Shown here: positions 3,784-20,000 of the stretch, in pieces
How positions within the stretch are numbered: position 1 is the first letter of the stretch
Layout of the letters: every line of letters starts with the position of its first letter
IMG/VR virus record: IMGVR_UViG_3300005253_000382
Location: 46,102 to 66,101 of that record
Strand: one strand, 5' to 3'
From: an uncultured virus (IMG/VR IMGVR_UViG_3300005253_000382)
Taxonomy: Duplodnaviria; Heunggongvirae; Uroviricota; Caudoviricetes
Length of the DNA stretch: 20,000 nt
Made by a program: the position numbers and the translations under genes
Notes under the pieces: generated by a model
What the model saw: the letters and a program-made list of their open reading frames with translations, nothing else
Database searches by the model: none
Told to the model about the DNA's origin: nothing

Positions 3784-3908
3784 TATTTCTTCCTCGTAAA
3801 TTCCTTTAGTTTCTTCTCGGATAACCCTGTCTTGGTTTTCTTCCCTGCCCTCCGCCTTGAAAGCTCGGCTCCAAAGAACCTTCTCTGCTTTGTACTCTTA
3901 GCTGGCAT
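3783..3908 (-). CDS. 41-aa Lys/Arg-rich protein MPAKSTKQRRFFGAELSRRRAGKKTKTGLSEKKLKEFTRKK, resembling DUF3008-like small basic proteins
   Basis: Manual translation, below the ORF-track cutoff; SD GAGGTGA; overlaps the end of the E1-beta-like gene. 'MPAKS..Q....GA.LS.R.G' recalls DUF3008 from memory. Confidence 0.75.
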   Translation of the reverse strand: MPAKSTKQRRFFGAELSRRRAGKKTKTGLSEKKLKEFTRKK

Positions 3909-4413
3909 TACTCACCTCAATCAATAAACTACTCCTGTCACTATTCAAGGCACACTTATAACTCTCAACAACATCCTCAGCCTTGTCTAGTTTAATGACA
4001 TCCACGTTCTTTAATATGTCCCTGAAGCCTGAAGTGTAATCAGAGCAATGCTGTATCCCGGGATATAAAGGTTCGGTTGCTCCTACTGCTGTACGTATGA
4101 TTACTTTAGGATTGAACTCTCCATTGCTCATTTCACTTATCTTGTCCAGATGATTGACTAGCTGGTTCATTGCCAGGATTAAGAAATCAAATCTCGGATA
4201 AATGCTAATCGGGATATACCCCTCTAAAGATAACCCGATACTCATACCTAATTGGGTATCTTCCATAATTCCAACCTCTAATCTCTTGTCCATTGGTACA
4301 CCTTTTAACGTGTCATACATACCACTCCCCGAATACTCCACTGTCTGCCCTAAGAATATCGTTCTGGGGTCACTCCCTAAAAGGGTCATTGCTTTTGTCA
4401 GTTCTTCATACAT
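3898..4413 (-). CDS. ThDP enzyme, transketolase/2-oxoacid dehydrogenase E1 beta-like, pyrimidine-binding domain only
   Basis: 'IFLGQTV', 'EVGIMEDTQLGMSIGLSLEGYIPISIYPRFDFLILAMNQLVNH', 'PGIQH'. Start most likely ATG 4413 (TGATG coupling with the alpha gene), 171 aa; no C-terminal domain. Confidence 0.85.
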   Translation of the reverse strand: MYEELTKAMTLLGSDPRTIFLGQTVEYSGSGMYDTLKGVPMDKRLEVGIMEDTQLGMSIGLSLEGYIPISIYPRFDFLILAMNQLVNHLDKISEMSNGEFNPKVIIRTAVGATEPLYPGIQHCSDYTSGFRDILKNVDVIKLDKAEDVVESYKCALNSDRSSLLIEVSNAS

Positions 4414-4964
4414 CAAAAATTCACCCACTGCCCGCATCCGTGATGAGGAAAGCCCCTTTCATAGCTATATCTCCATACATCCTTTGTTGGAGTATTCACA
4501 CTAAAACCGTTATCTTCCACCACAAATTTAATCGGTAACTCGTGTCCGTTAGCATACTTAACGCATTCGTGAAAAACCCCTGTCTCAGCCCCCATATCAC
4601 CGATGAATACCCATACCTTATTAGGAGCATTCCGCCTCTTTAGTCCCAATGCCACACCAAGGGCTATCGGTAAACACCCCCCCACAATAGAAGAAGTGAA
4701 AAACTTATGCTCTTTACTATTGATGTGCATTGACCTGTTATCCAGTATCTCAGCCCGTAACCATTCCACACCCATCCCCTTTAATAAGGCGTGGTAATGA
4801 CTCCTATGAGTGGAGAATACCCAATCATCAGGGTGAATATTCCTGAATATGCTAATCAACTGCTCCTCATTCCCCTTACTCAAATGCACCGGCGAATGTA
4901 TCTTCCCACCAATGTAGGCAGTTTTAATCCCTTCCTCAAAGTCTATTAAGGTCTTGGTGTCCAC
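4413..4964 (-). CDS. ThDP enzyme, 2-oxoacid dehydrogenase E1 alpha-like subunit (shortened)
   Basis: 'HLSKGNE', 'DWVFSTHRSHYHALLKG', 'SSIVGG' and the ThDP-binding motif 'GDMGAETGVFHE...FVVEDN'; 183 aa. Confidence 0.88.
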   Translation of the reverse strand: MDTKTLIDFEEGIKTAYIGGKIHSPVHLSKGNEEQLISIFRNIHPDDWVFSTHRSHYHALLKGMGVEWLRAEILDNRSMHINSKEHKFFTSSIVGGCLPIALGVALGLKRRNAPNKVWVFIGDMGAETGVFHECVKYANGHELPIKFVVEDNGFSVNTPTKDVWRYSYERGFPHHGCGQWVNF

Positions 4965-6166
4965 TCTAGCATCTCCTGTATCTGGATTACTGCTTGCTTC
5001 CCATACTTCTTCTGTATCATTTTCAGGTAATCTTCCCTTGAGAAGTATTCCTGAAAAGCCCTGTCTCTGAACTCCAACACTTCCTTAGAAGTCAAATACT
5101 TGGTCGGTAAGGGCTTCAGGTTAGGAGAATACTGGTCGTAATCCTCCCATTTATCAGGTAAATCCTCTTTAGGGGTGTCTTCGTACAATTGAGAGCCTGG
5201 ATAAGCCATCGCACAGTAGAAATTAACATACTCACACTTTAATTCCTCAGCGAAGTCTAAAGTCTCCCTCATTGATTTAAGGTCGTCATCAGGCAGGCCA
5301 AATATGAAGTTCCCCAGAACACTTATACCCGCCTCTTTGGTCATCTCAGTGGCTCTCATCATATCTTCCGTACTTTGTTTCTTACCTATACCTTTGAGAA
5401 CATCCTCGTTAGCTGATTCAAAACCATAAGCCAGCCAGTTTATGCCGACTTGCTTCATTCTTTTTAACATCTCAGGTTGTACCAAACCTACCTTAGCATA
5501 CGCCCACACATTCAGATTCTTCCCTTCCAAAACATCACATATCTGGTAGACGTGACTTGGGCTTATTGTAAACAACTCATCGGCTATCTTCAGGTTCTTA
5601 ACTCCTTTAGAAACCAGATAATCTATCTCCTCACCTACATCTTGTGGCTCCCTGTAAGTTACCCCCTTATATAGCGTGTGGATGTTACAATAAGAGCAAC
5701 TAAAAGGACACCCGAATGACGTATAAATAACTCCGTAATTACTCCTGTCACTCCCATTCAGACAGTGCCAATTGTGAGCTTTATATTTAGAGAAGTCTAT
5801 TAAGTCCCAACGAGGGACAAGCTCACACAATTGCTCAGGAGAAGGTATTGGCATACAATAGCCTTTTTGAGTTACAGCTTGATGATGCAGTCCCATTATC
5901 TTTGGGGTTTTTATAAGCCTATAATAAAGTTCACCCACTATTCCCATCTTAGGCGTAGAAGACGCTGAAGGATTTGCTCCCATTGCTACAAGAACTGACT
6001 TCTCCTTTCCTATCTGAGCTACTGTTTCCCACGATGACCATCCCTCAACCTCAGCATCGAGTATTTTATCAGCCTTCAAATAACCCGCTAGATAAGCACA
6101 CCATATCGGAGGCTCTATCGCTGATTGAGGCGAAGGATTCCTATGATTTGGATTAACGATAATCAC
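4946..6166 (-). CDS. Radical SAM protein with a (shortened) B12-binding-type N-terminal domain
   Basis: 'TSFGCPFSCSYC' CxxxCxxC, 'IADELFT', 'YGFESAN', 'GNFIFGLPDD', 'AYPGSQLY' are typical of class B (cobalamin-dependent) radical SAM enzymes. GTG start with AGGAG. Confidence 0.88.
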   Translation of the reverse strand: MIIVNPNHRNPSPQSAIEPPIWCAYLAGYLKADKILDAEVEGWSSWETVAQIGKEKSVLVAMGANPSASSTPKMGIVGELYYRLIKTPKIMGLHHQAVTQKGYCMPIPSPEQLCELVPRWDLIDFSKYKAHNWHCLNGSDRSNYGVIYTSFGCPFSCSYCNIHTLYKGVTYREPQDVGEEIDYLVSKGVKNLKIADELFTISPSHVYQICDVLEGKNLNVWAYAKVGLVQPEMLKRMKQVGINWLAYGFESANEDVLKGIGKKQSTEDMMRATEMTKEAGISVLGNFIFGLPDDDLKSMRETLDFAEELKCEYVNFYCAMAYPGSQLYEDTPKEDLPDKWEDYDQYSPNLKPLPTKYLTSKEVLEFRDRAFQEYFSREDYLKMIQKKYGKQAVIQIQEMLEWTPRP

Positions 6167-6251
6167 GTAATGCTCCTGCGGGGAAGGCTGCTACTAAATG
6201 TAACCTATTAGCCTTACCAATGTCAGTTCCGATTGCTTCTCTATATGCCAT
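6153..6251 (-). CDS. 32-aa micropeptide MAYREAIGTDIGKANRLHLVAAFPAGALRDYR
   Basis: Manual translation; strong SD GGAGGT before ATG 6251; spans the gap between the cupin and radical SAM genes and overlaps both. Confidence 0.55.
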   Translation of the reverse strand: MAYREAIGTDIGKANRLHLVAAFPAGALRDYR

Positions 6252-6576
6252 TTGTACCTCCATTTGTAGAACCTGAAAGACGAATAACATCATCCTCCCT
6301 GTGAGGTGTACTTACTTCTAAAATAACCGCATCTGAAATCCCAAAGAACTTATGTGGAGTATTAGGGTTAATGGTATAAGGCTCTTCCAAAAGAAACTCA
6401 TCACCATCGATTGTCAAACTAACCTCACCCTCTAAGCAATAAAAGGTCTCCTGTTTCTCAGGATGATAGTGATAGGAACAATTAGCACCTGCATCCAGGT
6501 AGAGCAATTTACCGCAATATTTATCGTTGTTCACTACCCAGATCTCCTTCCCCCAGTTCTTCTTGACCTCAATCAC
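6241..6576 (-). CDS. Cupin-domain protein (mannose-6-phosphate isomerase type II / D-lyxose isomerase-like)
   Basis: 'KNWGKEIW...YCGKLL', cupin metal motifs 'SYHYHPEKQETFYCLEG' and 'PNTPHKF', 'LEVST'. Confidence 0.85.
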   Translation of the reverse strand: MIEVKKNWGKEIWVVNNDKYCGKLLYLDAGANCSYHYHPEKQETFYCLEGEVSLTIDGDEFLLEEPYTINPNTPHKFFGISDAVILEVSTPHREDDVIRLSGSTNGGTNGI

Positions 6577-7369
6577 AATAAATTACCTTTGCCCCGTCAG
6601 TATCAAACTTAAACTCCACCTGTTTTATCTTCAATGCCTGCCCGACATTATCCTGCTTGTCCGGCTCAACCACAAAGACTATAAACCCTCCACCTCCAGC
6701 CCCTAAAAGTTTCCCTCCTATCGCACCGGCTTTGAGAGCTTTATCATAAATGGTATCCGTGAGGGGAGAGGAAACATCATCAGCCAGTTTCTTCTTGAGT
6801 TGCCATGACATATCAAGTGCTGCCCCAAACTCTGAGGGGGTGTTGTAGTCATTCAATGCCACCTCCTTTAACTGATGAAGTATATCCTGATTCTCATCCA
6901 CTCTTTCAAGCTGATGCTCCACTATCTTCCCAGCACTCCTATATTGTCCTGTATCAAACAACATTAAGTAAGGCTCAAGCCATCTGTAATCTACTTCCTC
7001 ATCTACTATCCCGGAAGCATAAAACCTTAATCTGCGAAACCCACCCATAGCACAAATATACTGATCTTGATAACCAACATGACCATCCAGTTTATCCCTC
7101 TCCCATATCGTAGCGAGACCTGCTATCTCCTCATTACTCTTATCCGTGCAAGCCTTCAGTAACCCTACCGTAAAAGCCGAACTCGTTGCCATACCACTTC
7201 TCACAGGTAAATCAGAATGCGACCACATCTTCCCGCTATCTACTCCTACATAACAATACTTATTTATCGAGGTGGCTAGAACTACTCCCCCGTGTTCGTT
7301 AAAATATTCAGGGTAATCCGTCCCTCCTCCAAAAAAGGATATTCTAAATGGTGTCCTGCTTATAATCAT
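6569..7369 (-). CDS. hddA: GHMP sugar kinase, D-glycero-D-manno-heptose 7-phosphate kinase (HddA)-like, internally shortened
   Basis: 'MIISRTPFRISFFGGGTDYP', 'INKY', 'GYQDQY', 'GAIGGKLLGAGGGGF' are HddA-family hallmarks. P-loop variant 'DLPVRSGMATSSAF'; 266 aa. Confidence 0.85.
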   Translation of the reverse strand: MIISRTPFRISFFGGGTDYPEYFNEHGGVVLATSINKYCYVGVDSGKMWSHSDLPVRSGMATSSAFTVGLLKACTDKSNEEIAGLATIWERDKLDGHVGYQDQYICAMGGFRRLRFYASGIVDEEVDYRWLEPYLMLFDTGQYRSAGKIVEHQLERVDENQDILHQLKEVALNDYNTPSEFGAALDMSWQLKKKLADDVSSPLTDTIYDKALKAGAIGGKLLGAGGGGFIVFVVEPDKQDNVGQALKIKQVEFKFDTDGAKVIYCD

Positions 7370-8415
7370 GGGAAGCTAACGCACATACTATCGCTCTCAA
7401 TTGCAGTGACCTGTTTATTGTATTCACTCCACGTACACCTGGCACACTCTACAGCAGGGTCAATATCTTTAAGCAATGCCCTGTGTTCATTGGAACCCCA
7501 CTCTTTAATCTCAAACCTTTCCTCCATCCTGTGGTCAACACAAACGTACATCTTCTTATCACTGCATATCTGCACTACTAAAGGTGAAGCCAGGCATTTA
7601 TTGAAGTCATGCTTAACGTGAAACTCATTATCATATTTATGCGTTACCGTGTGTACATGGAAATCCTCCCCTTCCAACTCATGCAATTGACTAAACACAT
7701 AATGCACCTTCTCCATATCCAGTTCAGCCCTTTCCCCGGTAAAGTCTTTTCTCTCTAAATCTACAGGTCGAACATGAAAGTCCTGAACACCTAATTCTTT
7801 AGCAACCTTACCGGTATAAAGTAACGTGTCTATAGTCTCAGGCAGAACCAATGCCTTAATGCAAATATCAGTTCTCTGTCTATGGAGTGCCAACCACTTT
7901 ATATTATCTAACACCTTCAAGCAGTCATCACTACCCCTTACCTTCCTGTAGACCTCAGGGTCCGCACTGTCCAATGAAATCCCGACCCACCTGCAAAGCT
8001 GTAACTCATTACGTACATCCGAATCCATGAGTACCCCATTGGTAATTATCGAACACTCCATTCCGAGATTAACACCATAAGCAGTCATCCCTTTTATGTT
8101 CTCATTCAAGAGAGCTTCACCACCACCACCCCAGCAGAAGGCTTTAACCCCCCATTCAGAAAGATAATTAAGAGTGTCTTTAATGTATTCTCCATCCCAC
8201 TTAAACTTAGCCGGTAAATATCGCTGAGAATTACAGTAATAACAATTCTGATTACAAGCGCTTATAGGGTCAAGGGAAGCCTCAATCGGTGCAGGAAGTT
8301 CCCCACCATCAAGCCATGCCACTATCTTTTTGTAATGCTCGTAGTACGTTAATCCTTTGTACGAGTTAAAACTTGAGTATTTATTAGCGTCAGACCACTC
8401 TTTTATCTTTTCCAT
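7366..8415 (-). CDS. Radical SAM protein with a SPASM/twitch-like C-terminal Fe-S domain
   Basis: 'CNQNCYYC', 'GGGGEALL', 'IITNG', 'ISLDS'; C-terminal cysteines 'KCLASP...YVCVDHR...ECARC'. Confidence 0.88.
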   Translation of the reverse strand: MEKIKEWSDANKYSSFNSYKGLTYYEHYKKIVAWLDGGELPAPIEASLDPISACNQNCYYCNSQRYLPAKFKWDGEYIKDTLNYLSEWGVKAFCWGGGGEALLNENIKGMTAYGVNLGMECSIITNGVLMDSDVRNELQLCRWVGISLDSADPEVYRKVRGSDDCLKVLDNIKWLALHRQRTDICIKALVLPETIDTLLYTGKVAKELGVQDFHVRPVDLERKDFTGERAELDMEKVHYVFSQLHELEGEDFHVHTVTHKYDNEFHVKHDFNKCLASPLVVQICSDKKMYVCVDHRMEERFEIKEWGSNEHRALLKDIDPAVECARCTWSEYNKQVTAIESDSMCVSFP

Positions 8416-9403: not shown

Positions 9404-10036
9404 TTACAACGATGTTATGAGGGCTGCCCTTGCGACTATAGGCTGTGTTCCAGAGCTATTGTTGTTATTGACAATCACTCTCACCCTCGTTACCGCTTCC
9501 AGGTCAGCAGAAACTACGAAATGTTCACCACCACCAAATATACCGGTATCCGAAGCATGGTCGAATCTGGTAGCATCCTGAACACTGAACGAGGCTGTGC
9601 CTGCTATGGCAGTCGCCCTAACCCACTCAATTGTCCCACTTGTAAAGCAGATAATATCACCCAAGACCATAGCAGTTCCACTGGTGATTTTGACCACTGA
9701 TGTACCGATAGCAACATCAGATGAAGCGGCTGCTGAAGCTGCCACCGCCGACCCCGCTACCAAGGAAGCAATAGGTCTCCACGTGTCATTGTCCGCAGAC
9801 TCTGCCGATACCTCTATCCNNNNNNNNNNNNNNNNNNNNNNNNNNNNNNNNNNAGCGTCAGATGTGTATAAGAGACAGGTCTCAATAGTCTCCGTGTTAC
9901 TAACAGCTACCGTCCCCGCAGCAACTGTGCTGGCAACCGCAATAACCTTCATGGCATCAACGGTCTCATCAAACATATCATCGCCGTCACCGGTATATGG
10001 CGTTCTCCCTGGATACTTCCTAAAATTATTAACCAT
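9404..10036 (-). CDS. Putative virion structural protein, Ala/Ser/Thr-rich, interrupted by an assembly gap
   Basis: SD AGGAGGT. The frame is consistent on both sides of the N run, but the internal 'CLLYTSDA' is translated adapter, so the true length is unknown. Confidence 0.6.
   Translation of the reverse strand: MVNNFRKYPGRTPYTGDGDDMFDETVDAMKVIAVASTVAAGTVAVSNTETIETCLLYTSDAXXXXXXXXXXXXIEVSAESADNDTWRPIASLVAGSAVAASAAASSDVAIGTSVVKITSGTAMVLGDIICFTSGTIEWVRATAIAGTASFSVQDATRFDHASDTGIFGGGEHFVVSADLEAVTRVRVIVNNNNSSGTQPIVARAALITSL
9820..9878 (+). other. Scaffold gap (34 N) followed by a Nextera/Tn5 adapter remnant; artefact
   Basis: 9854-9878 AGCGTCAGATGTGTATAAGAGACAG is the 3' part of the Nextera read-1 adapter, including the 19-bp Tn5 mosaic end. 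Confidence 0.98.
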
Positions 10037-11046: not shown

Positions 11047-11522
11047 TTCTTAGCCTCCAACAGCTTCATTAGTTCCTTGTTCTGTTCGATTAGTGAGTGT
11101 ACATCACCTTTGAGTTCCAGGAATTCAGTTCGTAGTTCTTCTGTTTCCTTGGCTGCCTCCATTGCTTCACCCTGCTGCCTTTCCTTCGCCCACTTCTCCC
11201 ACTCCGCAGCCTTAGTTTTCTTTCCAAGGATACAGGCATCTACCTCTTCCTGTGTATCGTGCCAGTTATCGCACCCATCACAGTGAGGTTTTAATTCAGT
11301 AGGCATAACAGGCAACCACCCCTTATCATAGTTGGCATCCCTCGTCCCCGATTCTATAACCTTGCCATCCTGTTTAACCACATAATCCCTGATAGCGGGG
11401 ATTGCTCTCATTTTCCGTCCATCTGGTGTGAAATAGGTCTGCCTCCCTATCCCACCAATATCACCACTAATACCATATCCAGACCTTTCAATCCCTTCTT
11501 TAGCCTGCTCAGAAATAGTCAT
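11043..11522 (-). CDS. Hypothetical protein with a CxxCxxxH...C cluster and C-terminal coiled coil
   Basis: 159 aa; 'HCDGCDNWHDTQEEVDAC'; SD GGAGG; ATGA overlap. Confidence 0.75.
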   Translation of the reverse strand: MTISEQAKEGIERSGYGISGDIGGIGRQTYFTPDGRKMRAIPAIRDYVVKQDGKVIESGTRDANYDKGWLPVMPTELKPHCDGCDNWHDTQEEVDACILGKKTKAAEWEKWAKERQQGEAMEAAKETEELRTEFLELKGDVHSLIEQNKELMKLLEAKK

Positions 11523-13102
11523 GCTGCCTCCAATTTGATTTTGATTCTCTTATTACATTGATGGCAACTCGTACCTAATTGATGTAACCCTGCTTCTTTA
11601 TTAGCTACTTGCCGATACATTAAATCCTCTCCGCAATGGGGACATACAGCAAATATCTGATAAGCACGGAATCCATTATTCAACATAGGGCTTTCAGACT
11701 GTGGTTCCTCAATAACATTTACAGCAGTAGTCGATTCAGCCATCATCCAGGTCTGCTCCAATCTCATAATAAACTGCATCCACTGCCCGAATAAGGGGTT
11801 AGGCATTGCAGTCATATTGTAATTAACCTCATCAATCATCTCGTAATATTGCTCTTTATCAGGAATAATTCCCTTCTCGATAGAGTATTCAAATATCTTA
11901 CACCCCGGATAAGGGATAACCATAGCCAGAAACACCAATGACTGCTGACAATACTTTGCCCAGAAGTCCAACGTTTCCTGTATGGTTTCTTCAGTCTCAG
12001 CAGGGTCTCCAAATAAAAGATTCCCTCCAAAACCTATTCCGACTTCCTTAGCTAAACTTATGGCCTCGATGAATTGACCAACATTAGCCTTCTTATTCAT
12101 ACTCTTTAAGACTATAGGAGATGCACTCTCTATCCCATAAGAGAAGAAATAACAACCGGCTTTCTTAGCCAACTCCAATGATTCCCTGTCTAGCTTGGCA
12201 TTAGCATGAGTCTGAAACATCCAGTCAAAGTCCCAGCCGTATTTCTCTTTATTCTTAATCAAAGCATTGCAAAAGTCCTTCATACGCTTCTTGTTAGTAG
12301 CAAACAACTCATCACCGATAATCAAAATATTAAAGTTATACTTCTTGTAAAGCTGTTTAATCTCAGCCATGATGTTTTTAATCGACCTGGCTCTATACTT
12401 CGGACCACCTGAATGAACACAGAAGGAGCAATTAAAAGGACACGACCTTGCTGTGTTAATCGTCATCGGTCTGGGGTAAGGACGGGAATATTTATATAAG
12501 ACTCTGGTAGACATTGAATAATCATCCAGCATCCCCTGAATCCCGAAAGGTTCATAATCAGGGAATGCCCGGTCATCCAAGTTCCCATAATCATAGTTAG
12601 TCTCATTAAACACTGCCCCATCATCTGTCCAGTAAGCCAGATTATCAATACCTCTAGGGTGTCCTTCTGTTTTAAGTATATCAACCAGTTTAACTATCGC
12701 CTCTTCACCCTCACCCCAAATACCGAAGTCAGGTTTCAGGAGATTAAAAATAAACTCTTTGTCGTTATTTACAATCCCGCCACCTAAGACTATCGAGACA
12801 GAAGAACACTTCCTGATAACATCGATTGCGTCTTTCAAGAATGAATAATCCGTGCAAAGCCCACCCAAACCTACCAGGTCAGGCTGTTCTCTCTCAAGCG
12901 TTTGCTGTAACTCATTAGCTATCCTGAGAAACGGAGACGGGTACTTGGTAGCATTGTTCAAGTTTAACCCGATAACTTCATGTCCGGCGTTCTTTAAGGC
13001 TGAAGCAATGTACGCTAACCCGGTCGGGAAGTCGCTCATTGACAAGTAAGTAAAGTTTTTCTTCTTATATTGAAAAGTAGGAACGCATAGGAGTACTTTC
13101 AA
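11519..13102 (-). CDS. B12-binding radical SAM protein with a C-terminal Zn ribbon
   Basis: B12-domain motifs 'PTGLAYIASALKNAGHEV', 'PDLVGLG', 'IVLGG', 'GEGEEAI'; 'ARSCPFNCSFC'; 'YGIESAS'; 'PYPGC'; C-terminal 'CPHC...CHQC'. TTG start. Confidence 0.92.
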   Translation of the reverse strand: MKVLLCVPTFQYKKKNFTYLSMSDFPTGLAYIASALKNAGHEVIGLNLNNATKYPSPFLRIANELQQTLEREQPDLVGLGGLCTDYSFLKDAIDVIRKCSSVSIVLGGGIVNNDKEFIFNLLKPDFGIWGEGEEAIVKLVDILKTEGHPRGIDNLAYWTDDGAVFNETNYDYGNLDDRAFPDYEPFGIQGMLDDYSMSTRVLYKYSRPYPRPMTINTARSCPFNCSFCVHSGGPKYRARSIKNIMAEIKQLYKKYNFNILIIGDELFATNKKRMKDFCNALIKNKEKYGWDFDWMFQTHANAKLDRESLELAKKAGCYFFSYGIESASPIVLKSMNKKANVGQFIEAISLAKEVGIGFGGNLLFGDPAETEETIQETLDFWAKYCQQSLVFLAMVIPYPGCKIFEYSIEKGIIPDKEQYYEMIDEVNYNMTAMPNPLFGQWMQFIMRLEQTWMMAESTTAVNVIEEPQSESPMLNNGFRAYQIFAVCPHCGEDLMYRQVANKEAGLHQLGTSCHQCNKRIKIKLEAA

Positions 13103-13665
13103 CTTACTAATTCCTTTGTTTTAATTTGCCATTGCAACAATCTAATTTCGTTCTTTAACTCTCGCAATTGATTCGATTGACCATCAAGGTATCCTTGTTG
13201 ATAGCCATCTCGATAGCCTTTACTATGACTCAGGGAATGACTCCCATTTGTAGAGAGTTGCAGGTTTTCGATACGGTTGTCATCTTTAATGCCGTTCTTG
13301 TGGTGGACTATTTCCCACCTATGAAGACATCTACCAAGATGCTTTGCCATTACAAGGCGATGTTCAAGGACATAAACTCGCTTACCCGACATTGGATAAA
13401 AGAAATCATCCGATGCAACATAAATACGTATATAGCCTTGAGTATTTAACACACGGCCACCTTTCCAAAGATGGCAATCTTTCCCACGATTATGTAGACG
13501 AATCTTAGCACTACAACTACCACATCGAGGTGTTAAAGGTTTGCCTTTGCATAAAGTAACCCATCGTTCTCTCTGGCAATTAGGGCAAGCAGTCCAAATA
13601 CGTGCAGTATTGTGCTTATATCCCAACTCTCGTCCATACTTGATAGAACCTAAAAGTATCTTCAT
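13099..13665 (-). CDS. Free-standing HNH endonuclease (HNH_3-like) with an N-terminal Zn ribbon
   Basis: 'EHRLVMAKHLGRCLHRWEIVHHKNGIKDDNRIENL', 'WKGGR...GY', 'CPNC...CGSC'; 4-nt overlaps with both neighbours. Confidence 0.93.
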   Translation of the reverse strand: MKILLGSIKYGRELGYKHNTARIWTACPNCQRERWVTLCKGKPLTPRCGSCSAKIRLHNRGKDCHLWKGGRVLNTQGYIRIYVASDDFFYPMSGKRVYVLEHRLVMAKHLGRCLHRWEIVHHKNGIKDDNRIENLQLSTNGSHSLSHSKGYRDGYQQGYLDGQSNQLRELKNEIRLLQWQIKTKELVS

Positions 13666-14480
13666 TGGCCTATTCCAGGGATGGTGTGGATAAGGTCTAT
13701 CTCATTCACATCCTCCACACTCTTTTGGAACTCCTCGTAGAATCCCCATCTCTTATAAAATGTAATCATGTTCTCTGCGTTGAGTTCTTTCCCATCTAAA
13801 GTGTTATCCATCCTCGTAGCCTTCGGTGCGTGATAACCTACTCCATACCCGCAGTAAAATATATCCCATCCCTTATCTTTGACTACAAAGCAGTTATCTA
13901 TATCGTCTACACCCTTGAATCCGTTAAATAAATCCTCATCGAGATTTCCCTCAACCGCTTCCTTTCTTAAGAGAGCGAAAGCCCACTGGCAGGCATCCAC
14001 TTGATAAATACCTGTTAATCTGTGAGATGGTAAATCTCTCCCAATATCACAAGGAAGCCACTTATTCATCCTTATCCCAGCACTTTCAATAAGCCCTGTA
14101 GAGGGGTACAAGCACTTGAATCCGATAACCCCTATCTTGGGGTTTGATTCCATAAGTTTAAGGGCTTCAATCTCCCACTCAGGCTCTACGGTTACACTAT
14201 TCATTACAGTAGCCAGGTAGGGTGTTTTCATATGAGAGATTGCGATATTGAAGAATTGATTGCCGGATTTATACGGCTCATCTGAATGTATGAAAGTTAT
14301 GTTTCCATTACGCTGTTTCAGATCAGCCATATATAAGACGGTTAAATCCGTAGAGTCATCGACAACAATAAGATGGAAAGGAGAAGGTGTACAAAGATAA
14401 AGCCTCTCAATACACTTAACAGTTAGTTCAAGGTGTCCGTGTGTTGGTATTAATATATCCAGTTTATACTCATCCATCAC
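13662..14480 (-). CDS. Glycosyltransferase family 2 (GT-A fold)
   Basis: 'LDILIPT...LTVKCIERL...LIVVDDSTD', 'IGVIGFK...IESAG', 'GVDDIDNCF...GWDIFY...YH' follow the WbbL-like GT2 layout. Confidence 0.9.
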   Translation of the reverse strand: MMDEYKLDILIPTHGHLELTVKCIERLYLCTPSPFHLIVVDDSTDLTVLYMADLKQRNGNITFIHSDEPYKSGNQFFNIAISHMKTPYLATVMNSVTVEPEWEIEALKLMESNPKIGVIGFKCLYPSTGLIESAGIRMNKWLPCDIGRDLPSHRLTGIYQVDACQWAFALLRKEAVEGNLDEDLFNGFKGVDDIDNCFVVKDKGWDIFYCGYGVGYHAPKATRMDNTLDGKELNAENMITFYKRWGFYEEFQKSVEDVNEIDLIHTIPGIGQ

Positions 14481-14532: not shown

Positions 14533-15324
14533 CTATTCCAGGTTCAAGTTCATCATGCCAAAGTTTTCAGCCGTTCCAGCAGCAGTCACGCAGTAACCGA
14601 CCTCAGCTTCAGTAGCCCACGACAGATTGTTAGCCGAAGCAGCGGCAAACCAAACACTGAAGGCACCAGCAGCTTGTGTAGCTGCAACTACAGGTAAGCC
14701 AACAACAGCCAAAGTAGCTGAAGCGAAGTACGCAACGTAACCCCTTCTCTGAATCCAACCGAAGGAATTGGCAGGGATAGCAGTAGGCGGAACACCCGCC
14801 AAAGCACCAACCCTGACTGTATCAGCAGTAGTGAGTAGTACATTCTTGTACTCATTCTGCCTTAAACCAGTCTTGGTAGTACCCCCTGCTATTGCAGTCT
14901 TGACGGGGTCACTCTGGTAAAGCGTGATACTGGCAGCAGCCGAACCGGCAGCAGCCGAACCATTAGCCCTTACCTTATAGACCTCGCCAACGCCACCACC
15001 GGCACTTGAGGCAGTGGTGAAGTAGCCATCCTCAAACTGGTCTTTAGTAACAGCCGTAGTCCCGCCAGTAGTAATAGTGATAGCGGTAGCCCCAACAACT
15101 GCACTACCTGTCACCAGTTGCTGTTGATACATAGTATCAGCAACCTGAGCCTCACCCTGATAAAGTTTACCAGCAATAAGCGCAGTGGCAGATGCCTGTA
15201 CGTGACGAAATATCCGTCCGTCTGGCAATTCCATTCTGGTTCCAAGAGGTAAGCCACCAATCTTAGCTGCAGCCGTTACCTTCTCATCCCCAAAACTTCC
15301 GTAAACCGTACTTGGATAACTCAT
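14533..15324 (-). CDS. Putative capsid decoration/cement protein
   Basis: 263 aa, Ala/Gly/Thr-rich, directly after the capsid gene with SD AAGGAGG. 'LGTRMELPDGRIFRHV' and 'FGWIQRRG' resemble proteins commonly found after capsid genes. Confidence 0.7.
   Translation of the reverse strand: MSYPSTVYGSFGDEKVTAAAKIGGLPLGTRMELPDGRIFRHVQASATALIAGKLYQGEAQVADTMYQQQLVTGSAVVGATAITITTGGTTAVTKDQFEDGYFTTASSAGGGVGEVYKVRANGSAAAGSAAASITLYQSDPVKTAIAGGTTKTGLRQNEYKNVLLTTADTVRVGALAGVPPTAIPANSFGWIQRRGYVAYFASATLAVVGLPVVAATQAAGAFSVWFAAASANNLSWATEAEVGYCVTAAGTAENFGMMNLNLE
14932..14961. repeat. Exact 2 x 15-bp in-frame tandem repeat encoding GSAAA-GSAAA
   Basis: ggcagcagccgaacc at 14932-14946 and 14947-14961. Confidence 0.9.
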
Positions 15325-15334
15325 TTATTCCTCC

Positions 15335-16228
15335 TTATGCAGGTGTAGTGGCATCATTGAACAGTTCGACTATCCAGCCTGGTAGATACTCACCAACCCC
15401 ATATTCTCCAACGATATTGAGCTCCCACCCTCGTAGGGACGCATCCCTCTCAGGTTCGACCGACCACTCATTTGCAGTTGCTAGTATGATACCTCCACCC
15501 AAACCCGCAGCGAACACTCCACCCTTTCCAGCAGTAGAAGTGGCTATATCCAGGTTGCCATCTTCGACAATCGGCATCCCAAACAGCCTCCCGACACTGT
15601 AGTTCCTTAGAATGTCCTCAGCCCCACCACTCCATGCACCGGCAGCCGAAGCTGACCCAGCGATAGGAACCAGTGGTGTTACAATGTCCACCAAATCGAG
15701 TAAAGTGAACGGGTGGTGAACCATAACGTAGGGCATCGGGGCTGGCCCGCCAGTAGCCGTAGCATTACCCGAAAGTAACGCCCTGCCAGCAGCGATAGCT
15801 CCCATAGTCAGGGCTGTTGAACTACCACCAATGGACTCAGTAGCATCGTCTAACTGCCCCAGCAAGTCCTGGTCACGCTTCTTTTCCATTGCATCACCAA
15901 GTATCCTACCAGCAGCAGCCTGGACATCATTCATATTGTCTCTGATCAGTTTATCCGTTAGGATTATCTTGACACCCACTTCAGCAGGAGTAATCTGAAC
16001 ATTGGTATCCTCCATAGCTGAAGCGTTAGTCATATCAACACCTTCGGTCAGACCAACAGCTATGACCTCACCCCAGTAGGGAATGTTGACAGTTTTTCCG
16101 TCTCCTTTTTCCTTGGTGATTTTCCATACTAAAGAAGCCATAACAGCCTTAAACTGTGCCGTAAATCTAGCTTGCTCTATGACTGTTGGGATAGTATCAC
16201 CAAGTTCAGCAGTTGTGGTAATTGTCAT
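15335..16228 (-). CDS. Major capsid protein (HK97-fold)
   Basis: 297 aa; 'GKTVNIP', 'LTEGVD', 'ITPAEVG...LTD', 'GDAMEKKRDQDLL', 'VGRLFGMPIVED', 'ERDASLRGWELNIVGEYGVGE'; SD AAGGAGGT; follows a scaffold-like gene. Confidence 0.88.
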   Translation of the reverse strand: MTITTTAELGDTIPTVIEQARFTAQFKAVMASLVWKITKEKGDGKTVNIPYWGEVIAVGLTEGVDMTNASAMEDTNVQITPAEVGVKIILTDKLIRDNMNDVQAAAGRILGDAMEKKRDQDLLGQLDDATESIGGSSTALTMGAIAAGRALLSGNATATGGPAPMPYVMVHHPFTLLDLVDIVTPLVPIAGSASAAGAWSGGAEDILRNYSVGRLFGMPIVEDGNLDIATSTAGKGGVFAAGLGGGIILATANEWSVEPERDASLRGWELNIVGEYGVGEYLPGWIVELFNDATTPA

Positions 16229-16247: not shown

Positions 16248-16910
16248 TTATCTTCCTTCGCTTGCACGAAGTTCCATATATCTTTCTTTAACTTTAGGGT
16301 CATCAGGATTCTTGATATAATCCTCAATGATTTTCTCCCTGCCTTTACCACCAATCGTCCTATTAGAATCAACTTTAAGGGTTTTCTCCTCACCCTTCTT
16401 GGGAAGCTCTCCAGCTATCTCCTCTATCGCTTCAAGTGACCAGTCTGTACGTTTAGCGAGTTTAACGAGTGACTTCTTGTCTACATTAAGACGTTCAGCT
16501 ACCTCACTTGCAGTTTCTTCTCCTTTTAAGCTAGCTTCTATCTTCTCGTATCCTTGAAGTTTCTCATTTACCTCGTCTCGTTCTAAGGTCATTGATTCAA
16601 GGTTGGATTCAGCCGTTCTGCGTGTTTGCCTTTCTGTGATAGCACTTAACTGCTCGGTATTCCCTTCAGCAGCCTTTATCTCTGCTTCGTCTGATTCCTT
16701 TTGAATCCTGTCTAACCTTGCAGTTATCCTTTGGGAATTACTGATGAGTTTTGCGTTCTCAGTTCTTAATCTACCAACCTCAACTAACCCATCACTTTTT
16801 CCCTTACGCTCTGCTTCCTCAAGTTTCTTGGTAAAAGTCTCGGTGTCCTGTGAAGTCTCCTTTGACTCAACAGAAGTATCGTCCTGCTTCGTCTCTAGTT
16901 CGTCCGGCAT
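16248..16910 (-). CDS. Putative capsid scaffolding protein
   Basis: 220 aa, acidic N-terminus and Glu/Lys-rich coiled coil, directly upstream of the capsid gene; SD AGGAGG. Confidence 0.75.
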   Translation of the reverse strand: MPDELETKQDDTSVESKETSQDTETFTKKLEEAERKGKSDGLVEVGRLRTENAKLISNSQRITARLDRIQKESDEAEIKAAEGNTEQLSAITERQTRRTAESNLESMTLERDEVNEKLQGYEKIEASLKGEETASEVAERLNVDKKSLVKLAKRTDWSLEAIEEIAGELPKKGEEKTLKVDSNRTIGGKGREKIIEDYIKNPDDPKVKERYMELRASEGR

Positions 16911-16933
16911 ATCTCCTCCTATTTTTTGATAAT

Positions 16934-16968
16934 AAAAAAGCCGAATCAGAATTTAATCCAATTCGGCT
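16934..16968 (-). terminator. Intrinsic terminator immediately upstream of scaffold and capsid genes
   Basis: Minus strand AGCCGAATTGGA-TTAAAT-TCTGATTCGGCT followed by TTTTTATT: 8 perfect pairs plus 4 more including G-U, then a U-tract. Confidence 0.85.
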
Positions 16969-16987
16969 ATCGTTCTCGATTAACCTG

Positions 16988-17071
16988 CTTGCTGGCTGGT
17001 TTTATTTAGGCTCTAAGCCAAAGGATTCTCAATAAAGCGGTATATCCTCTTTCATTACCGCCACCAGCAAG
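16988..17071 (-). ncRNA. Candidate 84-nt structured cis-RNA (multi-stem, possible pseudoknot), family not recognised
   Basis: Closing stem CTTGCTGG/CCAGCAAG; inner stems GCGGTA/TACCGC and GGCT/AGCC; loop AGGAT is complementary to the downstream ATCCT. Confidence 0.5.
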
Positions 17072-17089
17072 TTATTCTATTGTTAATGT

Positions 17090-17200
17090 TCAGTCTAACT
17101 TCGTGTCGTGCTTGATAGGACTTACCATAACAGGTTGCCCATCCTTCACAACAACCTCAACCTTGCCCCATCCGAACTCTTTACAGTATTCTAAAGTAAA
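17090..17200 (-). pseudogene. DUF2292 (YezD/OscA)-like mini reading frame lacking a canonical in-frame start
   Basis: Reads FTLEYCKEFGWGKVEVVVKDGQPVMVSPIKHDTKLD*, resembling the DUF2292 pattern 'FGSVEIVVHDG.V..I.....K..L'. An in-frame TGA at 17201-17203 precedes it. Confidence 0.55.
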
Positions 17201-17223
17201 TCACAATCATTTTTACTTGTCAA
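17195..17223 (-). promoter_or_regulatory. Possible sigma70-type promoter
   Basis: Perfect TTGACA (17223-17218), 17-nt spacer ending in TGn, then TTTACT (4/6 to TATAAT but missing the -11 A). Confidence 0.3.
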
Positions 17224-20000
17224 GTTCTTGTAACTCTCTTCTCTTTCTTTCTAGTTCCCCAAGTGATGAAGGCGTACCTTTTCTTTTAGGCGCTACTCTT
17301 GCTCTTGGCTTGCCATTTCTCTCCTCAAATGGCTTCCACTTACCTAATCTAACGCCCTCAGCGTCGAATTTAAGGTCATTACCCCTAAAAGCATACCTAG
17401 CAGCACCTAACTCCTGTTTCTCATACTCAACGAGCTTCTCTTCAAATTCTACAGTAGGTATTTTATCGAAGTCTATTTCCTGATTACCCAGTATACCTAG
17501 CCAGACATTATTATAATAATCCTCATTATCTCTCAGAAGTCTCTCTTGGTCAAAACCCGTTCTCGGTAATGAATAATATTGCAGGTATGTTCCTTCAAGA
17601 TTCTCCGGAACCCCTATTTCGATAGCCTGAATCAATCTCTCATCCTTTACCCATTGGGGATGAGTTAAGTCAAAAGCCTCACGTTCTTCGTCAGTCTCCA
17701 GTGCTTCCCTTTGCTCACTTAATTCTCTACCTTTAACTTTTAATTCCAACCGTCTAACAGAATCGTCTATTTCATCTAAACCACGCCATTCTCGGTATTT
17801 GGCATCCTTAGCTAGAATAAGGCGAGCCTCAGCACTGTTGGCACCAAACTCCTTAACGGCATCAAGGTAATTAGTGTGAGATACCTCTGAACCTTTGGGT
17901 GGTAAGGAGAACTCAGCCAACCCCTTCAGTGGAATCCCCAAAGTTTTTATCATTTGCTGAGCTATATCGTAGGCTTCCTCAGTTAATATATTAGCATTGC
18001 CCCAAATAGCCAACCTGGCATTATCTTCAGGATTCAATTTCAACCACTCATCTCCAGGGTCTTCCTTTAATTCAGGGTGCCCCTCCAGGAAAAGTTCCTG
18101 CTCTTCACCGCTAAGTTTATGATAATCTCTCAAAGCCGAGATTTGAGCAGGAGTTAAGTTGCCTTGATGTGCATTGGGGAACCTTTTGTCGAAAGTTCTT
18201 AATTCTCCAGGGTCTGTAATTAACAAACGCTCTTGCCATTGAGTAATAAAGTCCTCAAAGGTAAATCCTTTCTTAGGGTCATTATTTATCTTTGTTAAAG
18301 GAATGCTGGGGAATGTATCGTGAACTTCCAAGCTAGCTTCCTTTTCATACCAAGCAGGGACAGTCTTGGGTATCTTCTTACCTTCTAAATCAGCAAGTGT
18401 TATCCCTCTTAGGGTATCCGAATACTCCCTATTCAAATCGGTCATATTGTAAATATCGGGCTTCTCACGAGCTAATAAAGGTACGTCATTGAGAGTATCA
18501 CCCAGTTGGTTGCTAGCATCAAAGAGTTGCTTTTCTATAACAATCGGCTCCTCAGCAGGGAATAAGGCCAAGGCTCTCTTAACGACACCAACCTTTAATC
18601 TGTCCATCTCGTCTATTTTCTCTCGTTTCTCTTCAGGAGACATAGTAGTTGATTTGAATACCGCATCCTGTTTCTTTCTTATTTCAGATAAATCCCTGGC
18701 TACACTACGGAGGTATCTGGCTGAAGCAGAGTAAGCTATCTCCTTGTCAAAGTCGTGAAAGAATAAAAGTTCGGGGTGTTTCGCTTTCAATTCATCGAAT
18801 TTGATTATATCTCCAGTCTTAAGGAATTCCTTTAAGGCCTTCTCATTCTTCTGATATTCCTCTAATTTCTCATAGAACTTATTAACACTCTCATTCTGAG
18901 AACCAAATGGATTACGAACCACAAACGCCTTCAGAACAGGAATGTCTGCTAATGTTTTAGAGGGTTCTATTATCTTGGAGCTTATTCCTGTTCCCTCTAA
19001 AACAAGATCCAATATATTTACAGCATACCTACCTAACCCACCTGTCCATTGTTGTACTAAGTTATCAATCTTAGCAGGTGAGACATTGATTAACTTCCCT
19101 ACTTCTTTAGATACAGTCGTGGTATATCTGGTGTACTGTAATTCCGGGGGCAAGTTCTGCCGGCTTCTCGGGACTATTTCTCTACCTCTAAAGAAGTTAA
19201 AGTTCGCTAGATTCTCAATTATAGGAAGGATAGCCTGCGGGATAAAACCTGGACTCCCAGCTTCTACGGCACTCTCCAAAACACCTTCCAATAACTTGGG
19301 GTCACGTTTATCAAGAAACTCCAAAAATCTCTCAGGAGCGGACCCGAATACAATCCCTAGTTCAAAGGGTTTGGGTATTCTGAAGATGGTGTCTTCGGTC
19401 ATCACAATCCAGAATAAATCCTTCTGCCATTGTGGGATTTCGTCCCATCTTGGATCATCACGGTTAGCCAGATAAAGTAGGATAGAAGGTAATGTTATTC
19501 CTACAAAAACCTTGAGGGATGTTCTTGTGGGATGCGTCCTAAACTCAGTAATCATCTTATCCCAACCCCGTATGTTCGCATTAAAGAACGGGATATATCT
19601 GTTCAAAGCATGAGCCGTTGCTCCTGCCTTTGCAAAGTCTAGCGTAACCTCTCTTGCTGATATTCCAGCCTCCAAAGGTGTAGCTCCTCTAGCAATTCCT
19701 TTCTTGAACTCACCTAACCTTGTTGCCCTTTCGCTAAACTCACTAAGTAACCTTAACACTTCGATAGGATTTTTAACAAAATCCGTGAGCTTTTTCCCCT
19801 CTGTTATTTCCTTAAATGACTTCTGGAGGTACTCTCTGTCTAAAGAAACCATCATGGCGTGTTCAGCACCCGAACTCCTAAATAACTGATAGTCAGCATC
19901 CTTTTTCACAGCACCAGCCATTCCTTTCAGGAAGTCTACACCTGGCAGGAATAGGTAATTTGAAAAGGAAAAAGCGGTCATTTGGTCACGAACAGGATTT
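17213..20000 (-). CDS. Large LPD38-domain (large polyvalent) phage protein, 5' end beyond the window
   Basis: 'YLANRDDPRWDEIPQWQKDLFWIV...FRIPKPFELGIVFGSAPER', 'VTLDFAKAG', 'YIPFFNANIRG', 'SPAKIDNLV...TGGLG' are LPD38-like. The frame stays open upstream of Met 19981 (...NPVRDQM). Confidence 0.85.
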   Translation of the reverse strand, partial: NPVRDQMTAFSFSNYLFLPGVDFLKGMAGAVKKDADYQLFRSSGAEHAMMVSLDREYLQKSFKEITEGKKLTDFVKNPIEVLRLLSEFSERATRLGEFKKGIARGATPLEAGISAREVTLDFAKAGATAHALNRYIPFFNANIRGWDKMITEFRTHPTRTSLKVFVGITLPSILLYLANRDDPRWDEIPQWQKDLFWIVMTEDTIFRIPKPFELGIVFGSAPERFLEFLDKRDPKLLEGVLESAVEAGSPGFIPQAILPIIENLANFNFFRGREIVPRSRQNLPPELQYTRYTTTVSKEVGKLINVSPAKIDNLVQQWTGGLGRYAVNILDLVLEGTGISSKIIEPSKTLADIPVLKAFVVRNPFGSQNESVNKFYEKLEEYQKNEKALKEFLKTGDIIKFDELKAKHPELLFFHDFDKEIAYSASARYLRSVARDLSEIRKKQDAVFKSTTMSPEEKREKIDEMDRLKVGVVKRALALFPAEEPIVIEKQLFDASNQLGDTLNDVPLLAREKPDIYNMTDLNREYSDTLRGITLADLEGKKIPKTVPAWYEKEASLEVHDTFPSIPLTKINNDPKKGFTFEDFITQWQERLLITDPGELRTFDKRFPNAHQGNLTPAQISALRDYHKLSGEEQELFLEGHPELKEDPGDEWLKLNPEDNARLAIWGNANILTEEAYDIAQQMIKTLGIPLKGLAEFSLPPKGSEVSHTNYLDAVKEFGANSAEARLILAKDAKYREWRGLDEIDDSVRRLELKVKGRELSEQREALETDEEREAFDLTHPQWVKDERLIQAIEIGVPENLEGTYLQYYSLPRTGFDQERLLRDNEDYYNNVWLGILGNQEIDFDKIPTVEFEEKLVEYEKQELGAARYAFRGNDLKFDAEGVRLGKWKPFEERNGKPRARVAPKRKGTPSSLGELERKRRELQELDK

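Follow-up and report, generated by a model that had tools for sequence, protein, structure and literature searches.

A candidate protein-dependent antitermination gate, with a DUF2292-like mini gene, in front of the head genes of an uncultured phage

How does a phage transcribe its capsid genes when the leader directly in front of them ends in what looks like a strong terminator? This question is raised by a stretch of 20,000 nucleotides, here called the window, which is the end of a 66-kb record of an uncultured virus of the Caudoviricetes (IMGVR_UViG_3300005253_000382) with its structural genes on the minus strand. We consider it probable, judging from the sequence of this leader and of its relatives, that the locus is a protein-dependent antitermination gate for the head genes, which would work like the BglG-RAT system with a nut-like boxA added. 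The features on which this reading is built are as follows, in the order of transcription.

17213..19981, minus strand: gene of an LPD38-domain protein, 922 aa from the first ATG and open at the window end (PF18857, E 1e-49)
17218..17223, minus strand: -35 hexamer TTGACA, whose TTG probably starts the mini gene or is one of its early codons
17195..17203, minus strand: extended -10-like element TG-n-TTTACT, 17 nt past the -35
17090..17223, minus strand: DUF2292/YezD/OscA-like mini gene, 53 aa including 28 bases that are absent from the record
17194..17195, no strand: site of the 28-base gap in the record; the bases are present in a sequencing-run contig (assembly gap or minor variant)
17073..17092, minus strand: boxA-like motif, beginning at the mini-gene stop codon, with a conserved A-rich tail
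16988..17071, minus strand: 84-nt insert with paired ends, lineage-specific, in part competing with the lower stem of the hairpin
16965..16985, minus strand: candidate antiterminator hairpin of 21 nt, with a lower stem of 3-4 bp, a small internal loop, a 4-bp inner stem (16980-16969) and an AGAA loop
16934..16968, minus strand: predicted intrinsic terminator, with a 12-pair stem (16968-16939), a 6-nt loop and a U-run to 16934
16915..16920, minus strand: Shine-Dalgarno sequence AGGAGG of the next gene
16248..16910, minus strand: putative scaffold protein gene, 220 aa, ATG at 16910, assigned by position only
15335..16228, minus strand: major capsid protein gene (Phage_capsid_4, PF25209; phrog_544), 28-32% to annotated capsid genes (5 records)

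The leader and its mini gene

Much of this layout had been predicted from the letters of the window, and several of the predicted elements are in place: the TTGACA hexamer at 17223-17218, the 4-bp hairpin at 16980-16969, the strong U-tract terminator with its 12-pair stem (16968-16939) and U-run to 16934, and the short distance to the scaffold gene, with 23 nt between the U-run and the ATG at 16910. The boxA-like motif at 17092-17073 had been overlooked. The label "scaffold" holds by position, but the gene product has no convincing Pfam match and no PHROG match; no relatives of the protein were found in viral contigs. Upstream, the 3' end of the LPD38-domain gene overlaps the promoter and the start of the mini gene by 11 nt.

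Some other parts of the record deserve mention in their own right. Between the head and tail genes (window 3898-8415 and 11519-14480) lies a block of metabolic-type genes that includes three radical SAM enzymes (one of them B12-binding), a GHMP kinase, a cupin, a glycosyltransferase, an HNH gene and a split transketolase/E1-like pair, and that possibly serves virion or sugar modification. Inside the ORF at 9404-10036, a run of 34 Ns is followed by adapter-like sequence (window 9820-9878), which we take to be a Nextera adapter end and thus a library or assembly artefact. A second head module is present in the same record outside the window (G000:C1:12302-14881), with a capsid gene at 12302-13177, a scaffold gene at 13189-13971, a Com-like gene near 14705-14881 and a Com-type hairpin near 14144. 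Because it contains two capsid genes, the 66-kb record may consist of two related phage pieces joined together.

As written in the record, the DUF2292-like frame extends from 17200 to 17090 (36 aa), scores 14.6 bits against a Pfam cut-off of 22 and has no start codon ahead of the domain. Three sediment runs, X1, X2 and X3, contain this stretch; no RNA run with it is listed, which has no bearing on whether the locus is expressed. A 507-nt contig of X1 has 28 extra bases after 17194 and is otherwise identical to the record, and X1 record 6 at the gap site has a depth of 13.7, no other letters and the 28-base gap. The contigs of X2 and X3 stop short of 17194, and X1 may be the source sample, so that its support is not independent. 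By hand arithmetic the restored frame has 131+28 = 159 nt and is open over 53 aa, from the TTG within TTGACA as far as the last codon; the codons gained in this way agree with the beginning of the helix in close homologues, P0042 among them. Since these 28 bases restore both an open frame and the match to homologues, the mini gene appears to be whole in the population, the record carrying an assembly gap or a minor variant. A programmed frameshift had been considered as the cause of the broken frame and was dropped once the X1 contig showed the extra bases. The predicted DUF2292/OscA-like frame is related to the family by profile; in the record it is startless and 28 bases short.

A profile search recovered 101 DUF2292-like homologues among 645 candidates; the protein is a stand-alone one of 43-55 aa. 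Of 97 aligned homologues, 76 match PF10055 with E of 0.1 or lower, and a profile of all 97 gives the window frame 54.7 bits. Its closest intact homologue, P0042, reaches 13.7 bits on PF10055; the cut-off of 22 bits is passed by three of the six DUF-type proteins scored (L027 with 30.2, L010 with 29.7 and L040 with 26.9). With the OscA equivalog NF033785 (cut-off 85 bits), P0002 scores 22.3 bits, and neither the window protein nor P0042 gives a match. The model of P0042 consists of one helix and a beta-hairpin (pLDDT 86). Its homodimer model scores 0.70, as against 0.00 for the best of three controls, by a mark which true homodimers reach in 20 of 30 cases and monomers in 1 of 23, and which is roughly applicable to P0042; the homodimer runs agree in at least 94% of contacts with pLDDT of at least 87. 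The family consensus contains no arginine-rich stretch. No solved relative was found by sequence, by Foldseek (no E below 1.6) or by VIA-align (best Z 2.9), which by itself does not make it a new fold, and the ESM Atlas returned only DUF2292 or unnamed clusters with scores of 0.86 or lower. Other searches for the mini gene were sparse in yield. Searches of annotated phages by tblastn with the mini proteins gave chance matches only, back-translated and hairpin patterns gave no matches in viral contigs, and alignment-based locus searches confirmed 1 of 179 and 1 of 523 candidates, both on the same contig; in another such search the one hit among 113 candidates, L119, proved to be a false positive inside a long ORF. 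DUF2292/OscA proteins are widespread and have genetic ties to sulfur starvation and chromate resistance, and to our knowledge no molecular function has been described for them.

The TTGACA element that had been noted ahead of the mini gene is present, but the -10 that follows it after 17 nt (TG-n-TTTACT) is non-canonical, and the head promoter is not among the 38 promoter sites returned by a scan of the window. In relatives, the -10 at the same spacing reads TATAAT, TATGGT, TATGCT, TATAGT or TAATAC, and TTTACT in L006. In seven of the eight other DUF-type loci an open frame leads from the -35 hexamer to the end of the gene, so that promoter and gene start overlap in 8 of 9 when the window is counted; the exception, L006, has its DUF gene upstream of the promoter. 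L047 has in addition an internal ATG with a ribosome site. Transcription is thus predicted to start within the mini gene, and because the promoter sits within the first codons, the full protein would need a transcript that comes from upstream. Many of the head-gene promoters of L006, L007, L022, L089 and L097 have, like the window, T for A at the second place of the -10 after TG, which may reflect the host sigma factor.

Hairpin, terminator and insert

The terminator ranks at the top of 12 terminator-like sites in the window scan, and a 56-nt piece containing it folds with a z of -4.6 (0 of 200 shuffles as stable). The small hairpin was predicted to abut it. It does adjoin the terminator, but it reaches further, from 16985 to 16965, and shares the first 3-4 bases of the terminator stem. 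In folding calculations, all eight DUF-type phage loci form the extended hairpin while the RNA is nascent and the terminator once it is complete; the same overlap was computed for L120 and L131. The shared bases are in all eight DUF loci the foot of the terminator stem beside the U-run, which is the part of a stem that matters for termination. In the insert-free loci L131 and L009 the lower stem has a pair probability of 0.98-1.0 before the terminator completes and near 0 afterwards, whereas in the window, where the end of the insert competes for the lower stem, the nascent value is 0.2-0.6. One fold of the leader, the minimum-energy structure, pairs the U-run with the Shine-Dalgarno region; this pairing is absent from the centroid.

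The inner stem of the hairpin covaries, by the kind of check that had been proposed for the locus. The three inner pairs are paired in 11 of 11 hairpins, and among six distinct stems all 12 variable cells are paired, as compared with 6.0 in shuffles (p 0.0004), in a register that was set by hand on the loop; a pair count based on a MAFFT alignment is weak (72.9% versus 65.2%, 15 of 500 shuffles). Letters of the loop and the bulge are conserved and those of the stem vary, as is expected of a binding site. Two subtypes can be distinguished, one with a 4-nt AGAA loop in the window, L009, L047, L129 and L131, and one with a 5-nt loop in the rest, and the link of the window hairpin to the 5-nt type is suggested by position, geometry and protein family. 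A covariance model, R1, built on a MAFFT alignment of six sequences mostly from the other subfamily, found its own training set and L047, L129, L137 and L138, and did not find the hairpins of the window, L006 and L131; it gave an off-target match in L042, and its match in L131 at 307-337 looks like chance.

Between boxA and hairpin lies the 84-nt insert, which had been described as a structured segment and considered as a larger, put-like RNA that might itself be the read-through signal. Its ends do pair, but its stability is weakly above chance (24 of 200 shuffles as stable, 16981-17070; 1 of 200 for the wider piece 16981-17090), and it is not conserved. It is missing from L009, L010, L040 and L131, and elsewhere its place is taken by unrelated self-closed inserts, found between boxA and hairpin in L118, L022, L006, L014, L047, L084, L064 and the second module of the same record; in local alignments with other inserts, 1 of 11 falls below p 0.05, and the first 9-12 nt alone recur. 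This argues against the larger RNA as a read-through signal, and the segment is best read as cargo and not as the switch. Several inserts, that of L118 lying at 1680-1855, share their first 9-12 nt with the window insert. Some look, to our eye, like degenerate tRNAs with long arms; ARAGORN finds no tRNA in the window or in nine loci with inserts. Rfam gave no match at gathering level in the window, chance matches only for the leader and for L118, and among eight other loci a single SAM riboswitch, in L120. At a loose end at window position 16977, another X1 contig runs from a boxA-like motif straight into a similar hairpin and terminator and lacks the 84-nt insert.

Exchange of protein and hairpin among related leaders

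Searches for capsid homologues gave 4, 80 and 32 loci. We kept those with at least 900 nt upstream of the capsid gene and a callable scaffold frame and merged identical leaders, which left 62 entries, the window and the second head module of its record among them. Seven of these 62 non-redundant leaders carry a DUF2292-like gene, 22 (8 of them seeds) a gene for a Com-like zinc ribbon, none both and 33 neither. The Com-like protein of L003 matches phrog_13819 (gpCom, E 0.01), and no CxxC..CxxC zinc ribbon is present in the window leader. The hairpins differ along with the proteins: at DUF loci the hairpin has an internal loop and an A-rich apex, and at Com loci it is shorter and ends in AGCC or GGCC, while in both types the 3' side doubles as the terminator foot. 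Terminators of -10 kcal/mol or better are found at 26 of 29 loci with a mini gene as against 11 of 31 without, in a count whose rows are related, whose finder missed two visible terminators and from which L093, L056 and L076 were left out. Thus 11 of the 31 tested leaders with neither protein still show a strong hairpin with a U-run. Strong terminator-like hairpins stand before the scaffold gene, with neither mini gene, in L008, L011, L021, L032, L057, L059, L062 and L085; L032 has a different small hairpin ahead of the terminator, which perhaps points to a third module or to a factor encoded elsewhere. In one marine clade (L089, L092, L097, L098, L105, L110 and L117) a further conserved structured leader adjoins the scaffold start and, where a terminator is present, lies downstream of it. 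At L009:1294-1467, just upstream of the DUF2292-like gene, we noted a CxxC..CxxC frame that the profile does not class as Com-like.

How closely the hairpin follows the protein was measured by a label-free comparison, which we prefer to the regular expressions for the classes, as these were written after seeing the data and give false positives. If each locus is given the class of the locus most similar to it in the 31 nt ahead of the terminator, the protein class is right in 29 of 29 loci (permutation mean 17), with the terminator anchors of L009 and L070 set by hand, and it remains so when neighbours above 75% capsid similarity are barred. The nearest capsid predicts the class in 17 of 27. 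On a capsid tree of 56 rows, which leaves out L111, L117, L118 and the second module, the DUF label changes 5 times for 7 rows and the Com label 10 times for 19. The nearest relatives of the window illustrate this, since L006, with a 97% capsid, has another DUF subfamily with another hairpin, the 95% neighbour L007 has a Com pair, and L008 has neither. The hairpin type therefore follows the protein type across cassette swaps. Gene and hairpin are, however, linked in one short cassette, so co-occurrence is possible without binding, and much of the 29 of 29 could come from co-transfer by itself. Three out-of-sample loci tested the pairing and agreed with it. In L047 the hairpin was seen before the gene, which was then found about 800 nt upstream, on the far side of an insert and of an HNH-like gene. 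L118 came up with the protein as the only query and shows the complete layout, and L131, which came up with only the hairpin pattern, encodes a mini protein of the same subfamily as the window. The pattern gave 15 matches, 2 in context and 13 out of context; L129 offers too little sequence to look for the gene. The order of gene, hairpin and terminator is thus conserved in relatives, as had been asked of them. The central claim of the original prediction, that the small hairpin is a read-through signal opened by the DUF2292-like protein, is favoured by these comparative tests but not by the R1 search. At this level, the anatomy, the mutual exclusivity, the covariation and the co-occurrence of protein and hairpin are computed features of the loci.

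A similar arrangement occurs in bacteria. In three of five Bacillales YezD loci examined, a hairpin of the same kind, overlapping a terminator, follows directly after the YezD stop codon; of one set of seven YezD records, two near-duplicates were left out. These three are a Cytobacillus and two Bacillus records, two of the three being near-identical, and in the two annotated ones the element stands before cysH; L120 has a SAM riboswitch upstream as well. The other two loci, on Priestia plasmids, have no hairpin.

The boxA-like motif of the window matches 9 of 12 positions of the E. coli consensus, as given in an excerpt of PMC13753749, which on its own is not significant (P 0.08). A match of 9 of 12 or better is present in seven of eight DUF leaders (1.1 expected; 12 of 12 in L006), in 5 of 21 Com leaders (2.7 expected, a weak excess), in 3 of 31 other leaders (3.3 expected) and in none of the five bacterial YezD loci. 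Because Nus factors alone are reported to block Rho-dependent termination, intrinsic antitermination in lambda needing N (excerpt of PMC5725501), boxA would be at most a helper at this locus.

Proposed mechanism, alternatives and known systems

We infer transcription start, termination, binding, read-through and Nus involvement in the following way. A host-type promoter lies in the first codons of the mini gene, so that its own transcript could not encode the whole protein. By default, both this transcript and read-through from upstream would stop at the terminator, which wins in the completed fold. The 53-aa protein would be made from the upstream operon and dimerise, as modelled, and the dimer would bind the nascent 21-nt hairpin. 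The bound hairpin would lock 3-4 bases of the terminator foot, letting polymerase continue into the scaffold and capsid genes, and the boxA-like motif probably helps, although with weaker grounds, by recruiting NusB-S10. Such a gate would be a timing device that turns the capsid genes on only after the upstream late genes have been translated. In related phages, a Com-like zinc ribbon fills the same slot together with a hairpin of its own type. Such an exchange suggests that each protein opens the stop signal to switch capsid synthesis on. The locus is real and conserved, and it is probably a regulatory gate of a known logical kind with an undescribed protein-RNA pair. A wider version goes further than we would readily follow and is offered tentatively: DUF2292/YezD/OscA proteins would be minimal dimeric RNA-binding antiterminators, and a fixed chassis of promoter, boxA and terminator would take swapped orthogonal protein-hairpin pairs, among them several DUF2292 subfamilies and Com-like zinc ribbons. 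The protein would block the terminator sterically and, with boxA-bound NusB-S10, load a processive complex, and the promoter within the gene would serve as a feed-forward timer for capsid synthesis.

Three other readings of the same locus have to be weighed. The mini protein might be a small DNA-binding dimer, with a Phd-like sheet and helix, acting on the promoter of its own gene, while hairpin and terminator form a protein-independent attenuator of fixed leakiness and co-occur with the gene by way of the cassette. The overlap of promoter and gene start in 8 of 9 DUF loci, the symmetric dimer model and the formation of the nascent hairpin without protein in the calculations would all agree with this, as would a weak match to the Phd-like profile phrog_375, seen in 3 of 97 members (best E 0.004); yet none of the 97 homologues matches the Pfam Phd family. 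The pairing of protein and hairpin persists, moreover, across about 800 nt of inserted DNA in L047, with the gene upstream of the promoter in L006 and in Bacillales sulfur operons, where the hairpin lies directly past the stop codon, and a conserved loop and bulge with varying stem letters are poorly explained by it. We regard this reading as unlikely.

Binding to the hairpin with a post-transcriptional effect is somewhat less likely still. The protein would then protect or process the 5' end of the head mRNA or release the ribosome site, like Com at the mom gene of Mu, and the "terminator" hairpin would mainly serve stability or occlusion. Com, the type of protein that takes the slot in place of DUF2292, is known to activate translation (excerpt of PMC6483171), and BglG also stabilises its own leader RNA (excerpt of PMC12591593). 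The pairing of U-run and Shine-Dalgarno sequence in one minimum-energy fold points the same way, but it is missing from the centroid; the hairpin, furthermore, comes with a U-run and leaves at least 14 nt between its end and the Shine-Dalgarno sequence, and the overlap falls on the stem foot beside the U-run in all 8 DUF loci. Very unlikely is the idea that the transcript from promoter to terminator is made for its own sake, as a small RNA of about 280 nt with variable cargo, and that the head genes are fed by leakage or upstream transcripts. Many relatives do have structured, self-closed inserts between boxA and hairpin, but these are unrelated past the first 9-12 nt, missing in several loci and without match to any Rfam family or tRNA, and the covarying hairpin at the terminator foot would be left unexplained.

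If the antitermination gate is true, it would be a late-gene switch that works without a sigma factor, a Q protein or an N protein, and orthogonal antiterminators of 50 residues with 20-nt targets would be compact regulatory parts. The locus gives DUF2292/OscA a specific and cheap test, namely a 21-nt candidate RNA target with a terminator read-out, and by swapping DUF2292-type and Com-type pairs between phages whose capsids are 95% similar, nature has set up a specificity experiment of its own. Such mini genes are missed or apparently broken in annotation, as is that of the window, which is hidden by the 28-base gap.

The literature searched contains no description of a DUF2292-hairpin antiterminator, although the motif catalogues of PMC5737381, PMC10690425 and PMC8040213 might contain the hairpin. 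OscA/YezD of sulfur operons (DUF2292, PF10055; excerpt of PMC2996968) belongs to the same family by profile, with a hairpin of the same kind in 3 of 5 Bacillales loci. The likeness to Mu Com/mom is that relatives put a Com-like CxxC..CxxC gene in the slot and that their short hairpin loosely resembles the GAGNNCC Com motif; the window protein, however, is not Com-like, and Com frees a translation start (excerpt of PMC6483171), whereas the hairpin here overlaps a terminator. The boxA-like motif, the small hairpin with an A-rich loop and the small phage gene upstream of a terminator recall lambda N/nut and Gp17 of mEp021 (excerpts of PMC5725501 and PMC11893012). Unlike lambda N, the mini protein lacks an arginine-rich motif and is predicted to be folded and dimeric; unlike lambda nut, the hairpin overlaps the terminator, the genes behind it are late head genes and boxA can lie 84 nt or more from the hairpin. 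HK022 put resembles the locus as a structured RNA upstream of a terminator. It is a conserved two-hairpin RNA that needs no phage protein, whereas the 84-nt segment here is not conserved and has no Rfam match.

The RAT target hairpin has an internal loop. BglG, SacY and LicT bring together a small dimeric RNA-binding module and a hairpin that overlaps an intrinsic terminator, binding of which favours read-through (excerpt of PMC12591593), and a target hairpin that overlaps and excludes the terminator in this way is found by folding in 8 of 8 DUF phage loci. The resemblance does not extend to the protein or to the RNA sequence. BglG CAT has four strands (excerpt of PMC12591593), whereas the P0042 model combines one helix with two strands; Pfam matched neither a CAT nor a PRD domain in the window frame or the 97 homologues; and the hairpin is unrelated in sequence, has no Rfam match and stands before head genes, not sugar genes. 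In its geometry of mutually exclusive hairpins, the locus is nonetheless closer to BglG-RAT than to lambda boxB. Unlike BglG, the mini protein has no sensor domain, and control therefore seems to come from when the protein is made.
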